Shown here: piece by piece, positions 37,870 to 43,344 of the stretch
Layout: every line of letters starts with the position of its first letter
How positions within the stretch are numbered: the first letter of the stretch is position 1
NCBI RefSeq assembly: GCF_044647545.1
Contig: NZ_CP172818.1
From: Escherichia coli
GTDB lineage: Bacteria > Pseudomonadota > Gammaproteobacteria > Enterobacterales > Enterobacteriaceae
Length of the DNA stretch: 64,000 nucleotides
Strand: one strand, 5' to 3'
Notes under the pieces: generated by a model
The model's input: only the letters and a program-made list of their open reading frames with translations
The model's database searches: none
Told to the model about the DNA's origin: nothing
Made by a program: the position numbers and the translations under genes

Positions 37870-38028
37870 TTACTAAAAACGACACTTAACAAGTACCAGG
37901 TATAAAATATGCCTTATGGCCGAGCGGAAGTGTTTTCTGTATCCATAAATGCAAAAGTATTTTGTATGCGTGGTTTTAAATTTATTGATGGTGAATATTA
38001 ATGTTTTTTTCTAAGGACAACAAAAAGA

Positions 38029-38742
38029 ATGGAATCATTCTCACAAAATAGCAATAAATTAGATTTTCAGCACGAAGCCAGGATATTAAACGGCATATGG
38101 CTCATTACCGCTTTGGGTTTGGTGGCAACCGCAGGGCTGGCCTGGGGCGCTAAGTATCTCGAAATTACGGCAACAAAATATGATTCACCGCAAATGTATA
38201 TTGCTATAGGATTATTATTACTTTGTATGTATGGCTTAAGTAAGGATATCAACAAGATAAATGCCGCCATCGCAGGCGTAATATATCTGTTTTTAATCTC
38301 TTTGGTGGCGATTGTCGTTGCGAGTTTAGCGCCTGTATCTGCCATTATCGTCGTGTTCAGCACTGCGGGATCGATGTTTTTAATCAGTATGCTGGCAGGT
38401 CTATTGTTTAAATTTGATCCTGGTTCTCACCGTTTTATCATTATGATGACGTTGGCAGGGTTGGCCCTGGTAATCATCGTGAATGCCACATTAATGAGTG
38501 AACGACCCATTTGGGTAATAAGTTGCTTAATGATTGTCTTATGGTCAGGCATTATCTCGCATGGACGAAATAAGCTCCTTGAATTGACAGGAAAAAGCCA
38601 TAGTGAAGAATTATGGAGTCCGGTTCGTTGTGCTTTTATAGGTGCATTAACACTCTATTACTATTTTATCGGCTTCTTTGGGATTCTTGCCGCTATAGCT
38701 ATAACGCTTGTCTGGCAAAGGCATACGCGGTTTTTTCATTAG
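38029..38742 (+). CDS. ybhM: BI-1-like inner membrane protein
   Basis: 237-aa multi-TM ORF; shares the C-terminal GALTLY motif with YbhL. Confidence 0.88.
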   Translation: MESFSQNSNKLDFQHEARILNGIWLITALGLVATAGLAWGAKYLEITATKYDSPQMYIAIGLLLLCMYGLSKDINKINAAIAGVIYLFLISLVAIVVASLAPVSAIIVVFSTAGSMFLISMLAGLLFKFDPGSHRFIIMMTLAGLALVIIVNATLMSERPIWVISCLMIVLWSGIISHGRNKLLELTGKSHSEELWSPVRCAFIGALTLYYYFIGFFGILAAIAITLVWQRHTRFFH

Positions 38743-38777
38743 CCGTAAATGCACATACTAAAGAACTTAACTATACT

Positions 38778-39734
38778 TCACATCGCCGCTTCATTTTTCG
38801 CCCGCAGCTTCTTCGCCTGGCTTTCCAGTACCAGATAGCAAACCAGCGCCAGCAGCAGCGGGATAAAGTAATACAGCACACGGTAAGCGAGTAGGGCGGC
38901 GATAATTGTGCCCTTGGATGTATGCTCCCCAGCCAGTAGCGCGATAAACACCGCTTCCAGCACACCAATCCCCGCTGGAATATGCACGATGACGCCAGCA
39001 ATACTACTAACCAGTAACACGCCCAGTACAAAGAAATAGTTCACGCTTTGACCAAGTAACAGCCAGATAATCGCCCCCATTACCATCCAGTTAACACTGG
39101 AAATCAGCATTTGGGCGAGGGCGAATTTCCATGAAGGCAGCACCAGTTTTTGTCCTTTGATGGTCATATGGCGGTGCTTCGCGAAAGCGCAAAACCACAA
39201 ATAAACCGCGATAATCATCAGTAAGCCAATGCCGAGAATGCGCAGCGTGGTTTGATCGACATACCAGTGGTCCGGCAACTCCACCACGCCTGCGGTAAAG
39301 ATAACCCCCGCTAGCAAAATATAGCCTAGCCAGTTGGTGGTAATACTGAGCGAAAAAATCCGCGTAATAGTGCTGCCCGGTAACCCCAGTCGGGAGTACA
39401 AACGATAGCGCATACCAATGCCGCCGACCCAGGTACTGAGTGTCAGGTTGAAGGCGTAGCAGATAAACGACACCAGCATCACCTGGCGCTTCGCCAGTTT
39501 GTGACCGCAGTAGAAACGGGCGAGCAGGTCGTAGCAACCGTAAATCAGATAACTGACGACCACCAGCCCGACCGCACTAAGCAGCGCAACGCGATTGTAG
39601 TCGCGGATGACCTTCCAGACCTCTTCCCAGTCCACTTTTTTGGCGTAGACCACCAACAACACAATCACCGCGATAAAAAACAGCCAGGTGAGGAGTTTCT
39701 TTGCTAAGCGCCAGCGTGGGTGTGATTTACTCAT
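38778..39734 (-). CDS. ybhN: inner membrane protein, MprF-like flippase-type domain (UPF0104)
   Basis: 318-aa polytopic ORF; start overlaps the clsB stop. Confidence 0.9.
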   Translation of the reverse strand: MSKSHPRWRLAKKLLTWLFFIAVIVLLVVYAKKVDWEEVWKVIRDYNRVALLSAVGLVVVSYLIYGCYDLLARFYCGHKLAKRQVMLVSFICYAFNLTLSTWVGGIGMRYRLYSRLGLPGSTITRIFSLSITTNWLGYILLAGVIFTAGVVELPDHWYVDQTTLRILGIGLLMIIAVYLWFCAFAKHRHMTIKGQKLVLPSWKFALAQMLISSVNWMVMGAIIWLLLGQSVNYFFVLGVLLVSSIAGVIVHIPAGIGVLEAVFIALLAGEHTSKGTIIAALLAYRVLYYFIPLLLALVCYLVLESQAKKLRAKNEAAM

Positions 39735-40975
39735 CAGGGTTTTACCCCCGTGTTTTCAGTTTCTACCCGATCCTGCGTTTCCATTGTCGGTTGTGCGGGG
39801 GGATCAACCTGCGCCAGACGTGGCGTGTGTGCCGGAAGCCAGCCAACCAGCGCCGGGAAGTGGCGTAAAAAGTGGAACGCCAGCACGCTTTTAGTCAGGT
39901 TCCACCAGGTGCGTTTGGGCAGCATGGTTTCATCCACCTGCTGACAATCTGCGGCGATGATGCCGTTCAGATTATCGCGCAGCGTCTGGTTAAAATGACG
40001 ATCGTGGATGATGACATTTGCTTCGAGATTCAGTGACAAACTGAGCGGATCGAGATTACTGGACCCTACTGTCGCCCAGTGATCGTCCATCAATGCTACT
40101 TTGCCGTGGAGCGGGCGGCGGCGGTACTCAAAAACCTGAACGCCGCCTTTAACCAGATAGTTATACAGCAAACGCGCACCGACTCTGACAATCGGCATAT
40201 CCGGTTCGCCCTGAATGATCAGTTTGATCCGCACCCCGCGCCGTGCCGCTTTACGCAAGGCGTGTAAAAATCGATAGCCGGGGAAGAAGTAGGCGTTGGC
40301 GATAATCACTTCTCGCCGCGCCTGAGTGAGCATTTTCAGATAGTGACGTTCAATATCATCGCGATGTTCTTCGTTATCGCGCCAGACCAGCAATACCTGC
40401 GCTTCTCCCGGCTGGCGGTTCTCTTCCGCTTTGTGATGACGTCGCCACCAGCGTCGTGCCGCGCTCTGTCCTGGCAGGTTTTCCAGTTCAAATTGCAGAA
40501 TATCTTCGACAATCGGCCCTTCAAGGCGCACCGCGTAATCCTGTTTAGCCTCTGGACCGTAGCTGGACATATGCTCGGCGGAGTAATTCAGCCCGCCAAT
40601 AAAGGCGATAAGCGCGTCGATCACCACAATTTTGCGATGCATCCGGCGAAACACATTGGTGCGCATACCAAAAAGGCGCGGGCGGGGATCGTAGTAGCGA
40701 AATACCACGCCAGCTGCCGTCAGTTCATTGACAAACTCATCGCTGAGATCCGGCGAACCGTAGCCATCCAGCAAGACTTCCGCTTTCACCCCGCGTTGCG
40801 CTGCTGCCAGTAGCGCCGCATGCAGCTGTTTGCCGACGTCATCCTCAAACCAGATAAACGTTTCAAGAATGATGCGTTCTTGCGCCTCGCCAATCGCCTT
40901 AAACACCGCGGGATAATATTGCTCGCCGTTTTCCAGCAACTGGATCTTATTGCCTTCGCGCCAGCTACATTTCAT
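39734..40975 (-). CDS. clsB: cardiolipin synthase B (phospholipase D family)
   Basis: 413-aa ORF with two HKD motifs (HRKIVVID..., [20 protein letters not shown]); start overlaps ybhP stop. Confidence 0.95.
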
Positions 40976-41733
40976 AAATGAATCTCCGCACTTAAAGGGG
41001 CATGATCAGAAAGGTGTCGCCATGTCCGCAGCGGCAACGCGGTTGGCGCGCTGGCGCTGGCATTTTTGACGTAGATCCTGTCCAGTCGTAGTAGAGGAAA
41101 TTGCACCGGAAACGTGCGCGCCGGGCGTCCGTGGGCGCGGGTAAAAATCTCATCCAGTCCGGCCTGCACTTTTAACGGATGATTAGCTTTTTGCCGCCAG
41201 TCATTGAAATCACCCGCCACCAATACCGGTTCGCCGTCCGGTAGCTCATTCACCCATTCGGCGAGCATCGCAAGCTGCGCCTGACGGTGCGCCTCACGCA
41301 GGCCCAGATGTACGCACATCACATGAATCGCTTTCCCGGTCATCGGCGGCACAATGCGGCAGTAGAGCACGCCGCGCTTTTCCGCACCATCGACCGAAAC
41401 ATCACGATTCTCATAATGTTCAATGGGATAACGTGAAAGAACCGCATTACCGTGATGTCCTTCCGGGTATACGGCATTGCGACCGTAGGCGAAATCGCTC
41501 CACATGGTGTCGGCGAGAAACTCGTAGTGCGAGGTATCGGGCCAGTTTTCCACATGCAGCGGATGAACTTCGTGCGCGCCCATCACTTCCTGCAGGCAAA
41601 CAATATCGGCACTGACGGTACGCACGGCGTCGCGAAGTTCCGGCAAAATGAAGCGTCGGTTAAACGCGGTAAAGCCTTTGTGAATATTGATGGTGAGCAC
41701 CTTGAACGAAAATTGTTGTGTTTGATCGGGCAT
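40972..41733 (-). CDS. ybhP: endonuclease/exonuclease/phosphatase (EEP)-family protein
   Basis: 253-aa ORF, first gene of ybhP-clsB-ybhN. Confidence 0.92.
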
Positions 41734-41865
41734 AATTTTCCTGTCTTTGCCTCTTATCTCATTGAAATAGTGTAGTCGGCGTCACAAAAAGGTGCGGTCT
41801 TACGGAATTTTCCGTAAAGTTCGGTACTCTGAATAAGTAGAGATAAATTCTTCAGGAGAGAAGCC

Positions 41866-42276
41866 ATGAAGTGGCAACAACGTGTTCGTGTCGCAACGGG
41901 TCTAAGTTGCTGGCAGATTATGTTGCATTTACTGGTAGTGGCGCTGCTGGTGGTGGGCTGGATGAGTAAGACTCTGGTTCACGTCGGCGTGGGATTATGC
42001 GCACTGTATTGTGTCACGGTAGTGATGATGCTGGTGTTTCAGCGCCACCCCGAGCAACGCTGGCGTGAGGTGGCAGACGTGCTGGAAGAGCTGACCACGA
42101 CCTGGTATTTTGGTGCAGCGCTGATTGTGCTGTGGCTGTTGTCCCGCGTACTGGAAAACAACTTTTTGCTGGCAATTGCAGGGCTGGCAATCCTTGCTGG
42201 CCCGGCGGTAGTGTCTTTGCTGGCGAAAGATAAGAAGTTACATCACCTTACGTCTAAACATCGCGTACGCCGCTGA
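41866..42276 (+). CDS. ybhQ: small inner membrane protein
   Basis: 136-aa ORF with four hydrophobic segments and RBS; 3' end overlaps ybhR 3' end by 39 nt. Confidence 0.85.
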
Positions 42277-43344
42277 CCCTGTCGTGGCCGTTATCACCAG
42301 TAGCGGCCACAAACTATTCCACACAATATCCAGACTCGCATCCTTCAAATAAATCTGCTTGGTAATGTCCGTAAAGTGGCGAATAGGGTTAATCCACGTC
42401 AGATTTTGCAGCCACACTGGCATGTTTTCCACCGGCGAAACGTAACCGGAAAGGAGAATGGCGGGCATCATAAAGACAAACACGCCGATAAACGCCTGCT
42501 GTTGTGTCGAGCAGAGTGATGAAATCAACAGACCGAAGCCTACCAGCGATAAACCGTAAATCACCATCGTAAAGTAGAACAGCGCCAGCGATCCGGCGAA
42601 GGGGATTTGATACGCCCAGATACCAATCGCCAGCACAATGGTGGCCTGGAAGGTGGCGACAATTAATGCCGGTACGGCCTTGCCGATGAATATCTGCCAG
42701 GTGGTGAGCGGCGAAACCAGTAACTGATCGAGCGTACCTTGTTCACGTTCGCGGGCGACGGAAAGTGAAGTGACGATCATTACGCCGATAGTGGTGATCA
42801 TGGCGATCAGCGACGGCACCACAAACCATTTGTAGTCGAGATTCGGGTTATACCAGTTGCGTACCACCAGCTCGCTGTTGTTGGGTTTCGGTTTTCCTTC
42901 CAGCAGCTCCTGCTGATAATTTTTGACGATCTGTTGCAGGTAGTTGGCGGCAATTTGCGCACTGTTGGAGTTACGCCCGTCTAGGATCAACTGTAACGGC
43001 GCGGTCTGGAAGGTATCCAGTTTGCGCGAGAAGTCAGCCGGGAAACGCACCAGGAGTAACGCCTTTTGTGTGTCGATGGTCGGGCGGATCTCCTGCGGGC
43101 TTTTCAGCAGCAGCACATGGGTAAAGGCGCTGGCGCGGGCAAAACGTTGGGTCAGCTCCACCGAATGCTCGCCGTTATCTTCATCGTAGATGGCGATGGT
43201 GGCGTTAGTCACTTCCAGCGTGGCGGCGAACGGGAACAGGATCACCTGAATCAGCACGGGTAAAATAAGAATCGCACGGGTTTGCGGTTCGCGCAGCAGC
43301 GACTGCAACTCTTTGCGGATTAACGTCCATAAGCGATGAAACAT
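42238..43344 (-). CDS. ybhR: ABC-2 type transporter permease
   Basis: 368-aa membrane ORF, last gene of cecR-ybhGFSR; paralog of YbhS. Confidence 0.94.

Follow-up and report, generated by a model that had tools for sequence, protein, structure and literature searches.

The stress-induced ybhP-clsB-ybhN operon of Escherichia coli, a probable phosphatidyl-transfer module

Three genes in a 64,000-nucleotide stretch of Escherichia coli DNA (contig NZ_CP172818.1; the window) make up the known, stress-induced core-genome operon ybhP-clsB-ybhN, which probably works as a phosphatidyl-transfer module. The operon is real, ordinary and well annotated; it has already been published for E. coli and Salmonella, shows no sequence difference from the published one, and is not a discovery. 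The RefSeq annotation gives these three genes identical boundaries, several E. coli chromosomes carry their DNA with 100% identity, and the region occurs in 5422 of the 5426 complete genomes of the species. A preliminary description had reported a minus-strand chain of three genes, the domains of YbhP, ClsB and YbhN and two HKD motifs, and all of these were confirmed by the open reading frames and profile matches (Table 1). The unclear physiological role that it ascribed to the operon now holds mainly for YbhP. What our analysis adds to published work is a wider survey of synteny, EEP-PLD fusion proteins and a model of YbhP.

Table 1. Features of the ybhP-clsB-ybhN region (positions in the window)
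Feature	Position	Strand	Description and basis
ybhP CDS	40972..41733	-	253 aa, predicted cytoplasmic EEP-family phosphoesterase; ORF list
clsB CDS	39734..40975	-	413-aa PLD-superfamily phosphatidyl transferase (cardiolipin synthase B); ORF list
ybhN (pplT) CDS	38778..39734	-	318-aa polytopic membrane protein, stand-alone MprF-type flippase domain
First HKD motif of ClsB	40616..40639	-	H113-K115-D120 (HRKIVVID); regex on translation; PF00614 residues 109-132
Second HKD motif of ClsB	40085..40108	-	H290-K292-D297 (HGKVALMD); regex on translation
ATGA overlap	40972..40975	-	ybhP stop/clsB start; read directly from sequence (cattt-ATGA-aatg)
TGATG overlap	39732..39736	-	clsB stop/ybhN start; read directly from sequence (ccc-TGATG-agt)
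Candidate extended -10 element	41769..41775	-	CTACACT, ybhP promoter (sigma-S type); conservation
Conserved 18-bp palindrome	41800..41817	.	TTACGGAATTTTCCGTAA; ybhP/ybhQ intergenic region, 41734-41865

The phosphatidyl-transfer activity itself is attributed to ClsB, and is known for the E. coli and Salmonella proteins (PMC8027125, PMC6446866, PMC9241728). The protein scored 749.5 bits against the ClsB equivalog model NF008427 of NCBIfam (cut-off 281) and 207 bits, under the cut-off of 290, against the ClsA-type model TIGR04265. It matched PLDc_2 at 1.9e-43, in two stretches, as well as PLDc, and the activity of the Salmonella orthologue was abolished by the mutation H290A (PMC9241728). With PG or PE as phosphatidyl donor and alcohols as acceptors, ClsB forms cardiolipin from PG, and PG from PE and glycerol (PMC8027125, which cites the earlier work of Guo & Tropp 2000, Tan 2012 and Li 2016). 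In addition, phosphatidyl-trehalose and diphosphatidyl-trehalose (PT and diPT) genetically require ClsB, with trehalose proposed as the direct acceptor (PMC6446866). Head-group exchange beyond cardiolipin synthesis, as suggested earlier for this operon, has therefore already been published for ClsB. In a Salmonella clsB insertion mutant, pBAD-clsB alone restored both PT and diPT (PMC6446866), and thus neither partner is obviously required for their synthesis. The active site of ClsA was reported to face the periplasm (PMC8027125), whereas a hydropathy scan predicted no transmembrane segment in ClsB. Searching the PDB with the ClsB sequence gave no useful relative. Inside clsB, weak direct repeats with a spacing of about 695 nt may stem from the two homologous PLD halves.

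Judged by its sequence, YbhN is the flippase module of MprF only and not a full MprF, since it is 318 aa long and aligned with the model for bifunctional MprF over positions 3-302 of 841 only, at 164 bits (cut-off 600). It also matched PF03706 (4.5e-15, 56.3 bits, cut-off 33.4) and the N-terminal ~300 residues of the MprF structures 9goe, 9j8q, 7f47 and 6lvf (E 1e-21 to 1e-17), the best PDB alignment pairing YbhN 16-310 with MprF 41-342 at E 1.4e-21. About eight separate hydrophobic segments were seen in a Kyte-Doolittle scan, a crude method, and MprF has an eight-helix flippase domain to which YbhN is homologous. In both systems a soluble head-group-modifying enzyme is combined with a PplT domain, but YbhN lacks the C-terminal aminoacyl-PG synthase domain, and its partner is a PLD-type transferase from a separate gene. 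To our knowledge, aminoacyl-PG is not made by E. coli. The two domains of MprF also function as separate proteins, and YbhN, renamed PplT, binds ClsB in a two-hybrid assay, although the evidence for its flippase function was called indirect in the same preprint (10.1101/2022.03.11.483950). Deletion of ybhN left the phospholipid pattern on TLC unchanged, with minor lipids unresolved by this method (10.1101/2022.03.11.483950). The test by which the preliminary description proposed to refute a joint function, namely unaltered lipids in the mutants together with a lack of interaction with ClsB, has thus been half answered: the lipid change was not seen in the ybhN deletion on TLC, but the interaction of YbhN with ClsB was.

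YbhP matched the EEP family PF03372 over profile positions 2-225 of 225 (2.6e-23, 83.3 bits, cut-off 24.5). Across 76 homologues, with identities down to 35%, N16, D175, D218 and D243 were invariant, and E49, N177 and H244 were at least 90% conserved, so that in the alignment every catalytic or metal-binding residue of the EEP family (N, E, D-x-N, D, D-H) is kept in YbhP. The fold predicted from an alignment-based model was the four-layer α/β sandwich; a single-sequence AF2 model (pLDDT 54.9) was discarded in its favour. The fold does not separate lipid from nucleic-acid substrates, since nucleic-acid EEPs scored level with lipid ones in the fold search, and EEP lipid phosphoesterases such as the neutral and bacterial sphingomyelinases and the inositol polyphosphate 5-phosphatases share only 14-23% identity with YbhP. 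A PDB sequence search with YbhP returned no useful relative (best E 0.0056), and neither YbhP nor ClsB carried a detectable signal peptide or membrane segment. Our literature search found no biochemical data on YbhP and nothing functional on PA2154-PA2156.

The joint function of the three proteins that the preliminary description proposed is backed by the conserved gene order, by the existence of EEP-PLD fusions and by the two-hybrid binding of YbhN to ClsB. The order ybhP→clsB→ybhN on one strand was found at 60 of 80 species-level gamma- and beta-proteobacterial loci, in Enterobacterales, Pseudomonas, Stutzerimonas, Comamonadaceae and other Burkholderiales, and Cellvibrio. At 18 of the 80 loci (17 from Pseudomonas and one from Marinimicrobium) the YbhP relative had no ClsB or YbhN match within its 6-kb flanks, and in Citrobacter youngae ybhN was lost while ybhP-clsB was kept. 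Among EEP relatives further removed from YbhP (37-42% identity), a PLD gene adjoined the EEP gene in four of six informative contigs and was not found beside it at two distant loci. Three full-length single-chain EEP-PLD fusions were found in distant relatives (P0220, P0271 and P0272; 645-710 aa), and they are divergent, with only 30-42% identity when P0220 is taken as the reference. A DedA/VTT-domain gene was present at two distant loci, at neither of which a ybhN-like gene was found. The triad of Halopseudomonas lies directly next to a maltokinase-domain gene, which we take to be treS/pep2, followed by glgB, and in Stutzerimonas xanthomarina glgB abuts the triad. Trehalose or glycogen genes were rejected as general neighbours of the triad, the flanks in P. 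congelans and S. stutzeri being unrelated; the link to glgB was seen only at these two triad loci and beside most of the solo paralogues.

The overlapping stop and start codons described earlier are indeed present. At the first junction the clsB ATG occupies 40975-40973 and the ybhP TGA 40974-40972, and at the second the base 39734 is common to the clsB TGA (39736-39734) and the ybhN ATG (39734-39732). These overlaps do not imply the fixed stoichiometry that had been read from them, because such overlaps are commonplace, each of the three genes is preceded by its own Shine-Dalgarno-like sequence (GGAG 9 nt upstream of the ATG in the case of clsB), and transcript induction drops along the operon. 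Of ten neighbouring gene pairs that share a strand within the surrounding 15 kb, five overlap (moaC/D, ybhS/F, ybhF/G, ybhP/clsB and clsB/ybhN). Across the 60 triad loci, according to heuristic start calls, about 32 ybhP-clsB and 41 clsB-ybhN junctions overlapped, and in about 21 ybhP and clsB lay more than 20 nt apart. The operon is reported to depend on RpoS (PMC2907692), to be positively regulated by ppGpp and to be induced by a LolCDE inhibitor, which causes lipoprotein-transport stress (PMC2907692, PMC5105897, PMC10100675). All three genes were induced together (PMC5105897, PMC10100675), by 17.6-, 12.3- and 4.4-fold for ybhP, clsB and ybhN (PMC5105897), and values of 251- versus 7-fold were reported for ybhP versus ybhO (clsB) (PMC2907692).

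The ClsB and YbhN parts of the proposed explanation are well supported. The chemistry of ClsB and YbhP would take place on the cytoplasmic face, because both proteins appear to lack a signal peptide or membrane segment, and trehalose would build up in the cytoplasm under the same RpoS-controlled conditions as the operon. YbhN may serve as the membrane dock for ClsB and carry bulky products or substrates across to the outer leaflet, a task that in MprF the flippase domain performs for the soluble synthase domain. YbhP would be a Mg-dependent phosphoesterase with an intact catalytic site, its gene being tied, and sometimes fused, to genes of ClsB-type PLD enzymes. Most likely it would hydrolyse a head-group-side phosphoester in a ClsB substrate or product, which could make the energy-neutral transphosphatidylation irreversible, analogous to the action of PgsA followed by the Pgp phosphatases; alternatively, it may turn over the product in a phospholipase-C-like manner. 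This YbhP step is the weakest part of the explanation, and we regard it as possible rather than probable. A more specific version, in which the triad is a dedicated assembly line for glycophospholipids such as PT and diPT, seems doubtful to us: cytoplasm-facing ClsB would place the phosphatidyl group on a sugar or sugar-phosphate, YbhP would drive or edit the reaction by removing or cleaving a head-group phosphoester, and YbhN would flip the product outward for surface display, with unrelated candidate lipid transporters (DedA/VTT) taking the third role in other lineages.

The operon could also simply encode a redundant cardiolipin synthase of stationary phase and carry two passengers, YbhP being a phosphodiesterase of nucleic acids or nucleotides and YbhN a housekeeping flippase, and the overlaps reflecting compact packing. 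This is unlikely, since passengers would not be expected to remain linked or to become fused, whereas the three-gene order was kept over a large phylogenetic distance at 60 of 80 loci, divergent EEP-PLD fusions recur, and the three genes are co-induced. A purely degradative YbhP was judged improbable as well. Such an enzyme would act like a sphingomyelinase or phospholipase C on cardiolipin or phosphatidyl-trehalose, releasing diacylglycerol and a phospho-head group, for example trehalose-6-phosphate, and would form a turnover arm; however, the YbhP sequence showed no hydrophobic segment that would insert into a membrane, and nucleic-acid enzymes score equally in its fold search.

Very unlikely, in our estimate, is that YbhP only helps the expression or stability of ClsB, in the manner of YmdB or by coupling at the ATGA, without acting on lipids. 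The idea has a precedent in ymdB-clsC, where co-expression of YmdB raises the level of ClsC by an undefined mechanism (PMC8027125), and PLD-type Cls enzymes are co-transcribed with a small soluble partner in ymdB-clsC and clsA-yciU as in the clsB operon. The ATGA overlap, which heuristic start calls place at roughly half of the orthologous loci, and the steep fall in expression from ybhP to clsB (PMC2907692) would also fit. YmdB is a macrodomain protein, the fold of which is unrelated to the EEP fold of YbhP, and only the clsB operon among the E. coli cls operons also has a flippase-domain gene. Against the helper reading, clsB has a Shine-Dalgarno sequence of its own, is separated from ybhP by a gap in about a third of the orthologous triads, and was active when expressed alone from pBAD. 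The full EEP catalytic set is invariant or nearly so among the homologues, which argues for a conserved enzymatic activity of YbhP and against a mere helper.

The ClsB-dependent trehalose phospholipids activate the human innate receptor Mincle, and their production varies among strains of identical clsB (PMC6446866). DH5α and ATCC 25922 are named there as non-producers of diPT, and BW25113 and S. Typhimurium make it. Should YbhP and YbhN govern how these lipids are made, turned over or displayed at the surface, the two proteins would be the missing determinants of the strain differences, and YbhP would illustrate how an EEP enzyme can act in partnership with a PLD-type transferase.

Rfam (E up to 1) and repeat searches of 38000-42500 returned nothing meaningful, and a consensus promoter/terminator scan, in which the number of sites was not above that of shuffled sequence, gave no terminator after ybhN. 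Upstream of ybhP, the element CTACACT was kept in 9 of 10 Enterobacterales upstream regions, and this conservation, together with the RpoS-dependence of the operon, makes it a candidate sigma-S-type extended -10 element of the ybhP promoter. The palindrome TTACGGAATTTTCCGTAA matched the RcsB consensus (PMC7913699) at only six of the eight specified positions and was therefore not called an RcsB site; it overlaps a sigma-E-like -35 element facing ybhQ.

ORF calling and reading of the sequence bore out the three consecutive minus-strand frames of ybhP, clsB (ybhO), and ybhN (pplT) and both stop/start overlaps reported in the preliminary description. By megablast, several E. coli chromosomes matched the 2956-bp segment at 100% identity, and the segment was present at a coverage of at least 80% in 5422 of 5426 complete E. 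coli genomes, where the genes are annotated ybhP, clsB, and ybhN. According to the annotation, the operon is flanked by moaABCDE, ybhL, and ybhM on one side and by the divergent ybhQ, followed by the ybhRSFG-cecR transporter operon, on the other. ybhQ, on the plus strand, and ybhR, on the minus strand, converge and share 39 nt at their 3' ends (window 42238-42276).

Positions of the operon genes, their junctions and the ybhP/ybhQ intergenic elements in the window
Feature	Position	Strand	Remark
ybhP CDS	41733..40972	minus	253 aa ORF
clsB CDS	40975..39734	minus	413 aa ORF
ybhN CDS	39734..38778	minus	318 aa ORF
ATGA overlap ybhP/clsB (context cattt-ATGA-aatg)	clsB ATG 40975-40973, ybhP TGA 40974-40972	minus	sequence reading
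TGATG overlap clsB/ybhN (context ccc-TGATG-agt)	base 39734, common to clsB TGA and ybhN ATG	minus	sequence reading
Conserved 18-bp palindrome TTACGGAATTTTCCGTAA	41800-41817		ybhP/ybhQ intergenic
Conserved CTACACT	41769-41775	minus	candidate; looks like a sigma-S-type -10
Sigma-E-like candidate promoter facing ybhQ	GGAATTT 41804-41810, 17-nt spacer, TCTGA 41828-41832	plus	overlaps palindrome bases

Profile matches and motif positions also upheld the earlier domain calls of an EEP-family (endonuclease/exonuclease/phosphatase) YbhP, a phospholipase-D-type (PLD) ClsB with two HKD motifs, and an MprF-like YbhN. YbhP matched PF03372 (2.6e-23), while ClsB matched PLDc and PLDc_2, scored 749 bits against the NCBIfam ClsB equivalog (cut-off 281), and carried its HKD motifs at H113 and H290. 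YbhN matched LPG_synthase_TM (PF03706), the model for bifunctional MprF over its first ~300 positions, and solved MprF structures over their transmembrane domains (E ~1e-21). A hydropathy scan gave about eight membrane segments in YbhN and none in YbhP or ClsB.

The operon is known, core, and well annotated. The main interpretive point made earlier, head-group exchange beyond simple cardiolipin (CL) synthesis, was right but already published, since ClsB, besides synthesizing CL, swaps the ethanolamine of PE for glycerol to give PG (reviewed in PMC8027125), and is needed in Salmonella and some E. coli strains for 6-phosphatidyltrehalose (PT) and 6,6'-diphosphatidyltrehalose (diPT), both Mincle agonists (PMC6446866). 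In Salmonella, the whole unit was cloned for complementation and described as an operon, and the H290A mutation abolished ClsB activity (PMC9241728). The preprint renaming YbhN as PplT also describes the operon; there, the bacterial two-hybrid partners of YbhN were ClsB and also PgpA, PgpB, and PgpC, and the ybhN deletion mutant showed a mild growth and competition defect with an unchanged TLC phospholipid pattern, CL being below detection (10.1101/2022.03.11.483950). No paper on YbhP function was found in the literature. The role of YbhP and a possible export of ClsB products by YbhN form a genuine but modest question, which the synteny and fusion data sharpen and do not answer.

The claim that tight coupling implies fixed stoichiometry was unwarranted. 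The stop/start overlaps are not special, because adjacent genes on the same strand overlap in 5 of 10 cases within the surrounding 15 kb. By sequence reading, clsB has its own Shine-Dalgarno sequence (GGAG, 9 nt upstream), as does ybhP (AGGAA, 5 nt upstream). Published expression follows a gradient along the operon, not a fixed ratio: a LolCDE inhibitor induced ybhP 17.6-fold, clsB 12.3-fold, and ybhN 4.4-fold (PMC5105897), and RpoS dependence was 251-fold for ybhP versus 7-fold for ybhO (PMC2907692). Co-expression is supported, and fixed stoichiometry is not. The published regulators and inducers are RpoS (PMC2907692), ppGpp (PMC10100675), and lipoprotein-transport stress via the LolCDE inhibitor (PMC5105897).

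An exhaustive profile search for YbhP relatives returned 4417 cluster representatives, 381 of them at E < 1e-30. In an alignment of 76 full-length family members with identities as low as 35%, the EEP catalytic residues (N16, E49, D175, N177, D218, D243, and H244) were invariant or at least 90% conserved, which argues that the family consists of active enzymes and not of a degenerate partner. The AlphaFold2 model of YbhP, built with a 76-sequence alignment, was confident (pLDDT 96.7, pTM 0.93). Its predicted fold confirmed EEP membership in comparisons with the uncharacterised bacterial EEPs 4ruw, 3g6s, 3l1w, and 3mpr (25-28.5), TDP2 (24.8), human neutral sphingomyelinase 2 (24.4), Nocturnin (23.9), CNOT6L (23.2), PDE12 (22.4), Streptomyces sphingomyelinase C (21.2), ExoIII (20.9), and inositol 5-phosphatases (~17); as modelled, it does not tell whether the substrate is a lipid, a nucleic acid, or a nucleotide.

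A synteny scan with one genome per species returned 80 loci, and ybhP, clsB, and ybhN kept the same order and orientation in 60 of them (Enterobacterales, Pseudomonas, Stutzerimonas, Halopseudomonas, Comamonadaceae and other Burkholderiales, and Cellvibrio). With start codons called heuristically, 32 of these 60 loci had an overlapping ybhP-clsB junction and 41 an overlapping clsB-ybhN junction. In one Cellvibrio MAG (L057 6001-11296), the PLD-plus-flippase unit is duplicated: a single ybhP precedes two clsB-ybhN pairs in tandem. The triad abuts a maltokinase-domain gene, which we take to be treS/pep2, and then glgB in Halopseudomonas, and glgB in Stutzerimonas xanthomarina; these neighbours fit a trehalose connection, but the unrelated neighbours at other Pseudomonas triad loci speak against a general link.

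Of six informative contigs with distant EEP relatives (37-42% identity), four had an adjoining PLD sequence in varying arrangements, including PLD before EEP, with an inositol-monophosphatase-family gene ahead of both (L083), EEP facing a convergent PLD (L086), and EEP before PLD (L088); no PLD was found near the EEP gene in the other two. The fourth contig with a PLD, L002 (3180-5126), encodes a single-chain EEP-PLD fusion, P0220 (648 aa). It is unlikely to be an assembly artefact, because the architecture recurs in P0271 (645 aa, 42% identical to P0220; L091 5001-6938) and P0272 (710 aa, 30% identical). These natural fusions of 645-710 aa come from metagenomes. An apparent YbhP-ClsB fusion ORF on a 2.4-kb Enterobacterales ENA contig (P0033, 389 aa, 84% identical to YbhP) is most likely no true fusion but the product of a sequencing error or of a frameshift at the ATGA junction. 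The relative P0276 is an EEP-NUDIX fusion, and a NUDIX gene lies directly upstream of the EEP-PLD gene in L092 (4561-7050), a hint that some relatives may act on a substrate linked to a nucleotide. The third partner seems to vary: in L002 and L086, a DedA/VTT-domain gene was present and no ybhN-like gene was found. Proteins of the DedA family have themselves been proposed to transport lipids. In L002 (5136-7268), the VTT domain forms a fusion with a pyridine-nucleotide-disulfide oxidoreductase; in L086 (4411-5004), the VTT gene and the start of the EEP gene share 4 nt.

Several observations weigh against a joint function. At 18 of the 80 loci (17 Pseudomonas and one Marinimicrobium), no ClsB or YbhN match was found in the 6-kb flanks of the YbhP relative, and most of these Pseudomonas loci adjoin glgB and/or come after PIG-L deacetylase, methyltransferase, and GT2 genes. 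The solo Pseudomonas gene is a second-copy paralogue of ~59% identity (L059 2790-10526 and ~15 other Pseudomonas loci, such as L060, L064, L070, and L073), with glgB adjoining and, upstream, genes for a PIG-L deacetylase, a NodS-like methyltransferase, a GT2 glycosyltransferase, and PIG-L; judged by gene content, this looks like a separate sugar/glycolipid-modifying cluster using the same EEP subfamily without PLD. Citrobacter youngae (L026 6759-8812) has lost ybhN and ybhM and kept ybhP-clsB, with clsB directly followed by ybhL; downstream of its -10 element, an insertion of ~55-60 nt precedes the ybhP start. Expression of clsB alone restored PT and diPT in a clsB insertion mutant of Salmonella (PMC6446866). 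That ybhP and ybhN are passenger genes without shared function is improbable in our estimation.

ClsB is a PLD-type phosphatidyl transferase that uses a broad range of acceptors, the MprF-type flippase domain YbhN contacts ClsB, and the three genes are co-induced in stationary phase and envelope stress. Cytoplasmic trehalose also builds up under these RpoS-controlled conditions. Since ClsB and YbhP have neither signal peptides nor membrane segments, the ClsB reaction would occur on the cytoplasmic side of the membrane, unlike that of ClsA, whose active site is reported to face the periplasm (PMC8027125). YbhN may serve as dock and translocator for ClsB products, as the MprF flippase domain serves its soluble synthase domain; the two MprF domains also work when expressed separately (10.1101/2022.03.11.483950). 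For YbhP, hydrolysis of a head-group phosphoester is the most plausible role: the protein could be a phosphatase rendering the reversible transphosphatidylation irreversible, by the logic of PgsA and the Pgp phosphatases, or a phospholipase-C-like turnover enzyme. We consider the overall picture of phosphatidyl transfer by ClsB with YbhN and YbhP somewhat probable, and the YbhP step tentative. A specifically degradative, sphingomyelinase-like YbhP, a reading that overlaps with this picture, is as improbable as passenger genes, and a YmdB-like expression helper is less likely still.

Comparison of the plus strand between ybhP and ybhQ with the sigma-E promoter consensus yielded the candidate promoter facing ybhQ. 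Of the 8 positions specified in the published RcsB-box consensus (PMC7913699), the palindrome core GGA-N4-TCC matched only 6. A Salmonella sigma-E ChIP peak in this intergenic region was attributed to ybhP (PMC4577112). The plus-strand candidate, pointing at ybhQ, would account for that peak and suggests that ybhQ may be the sigma-E target.
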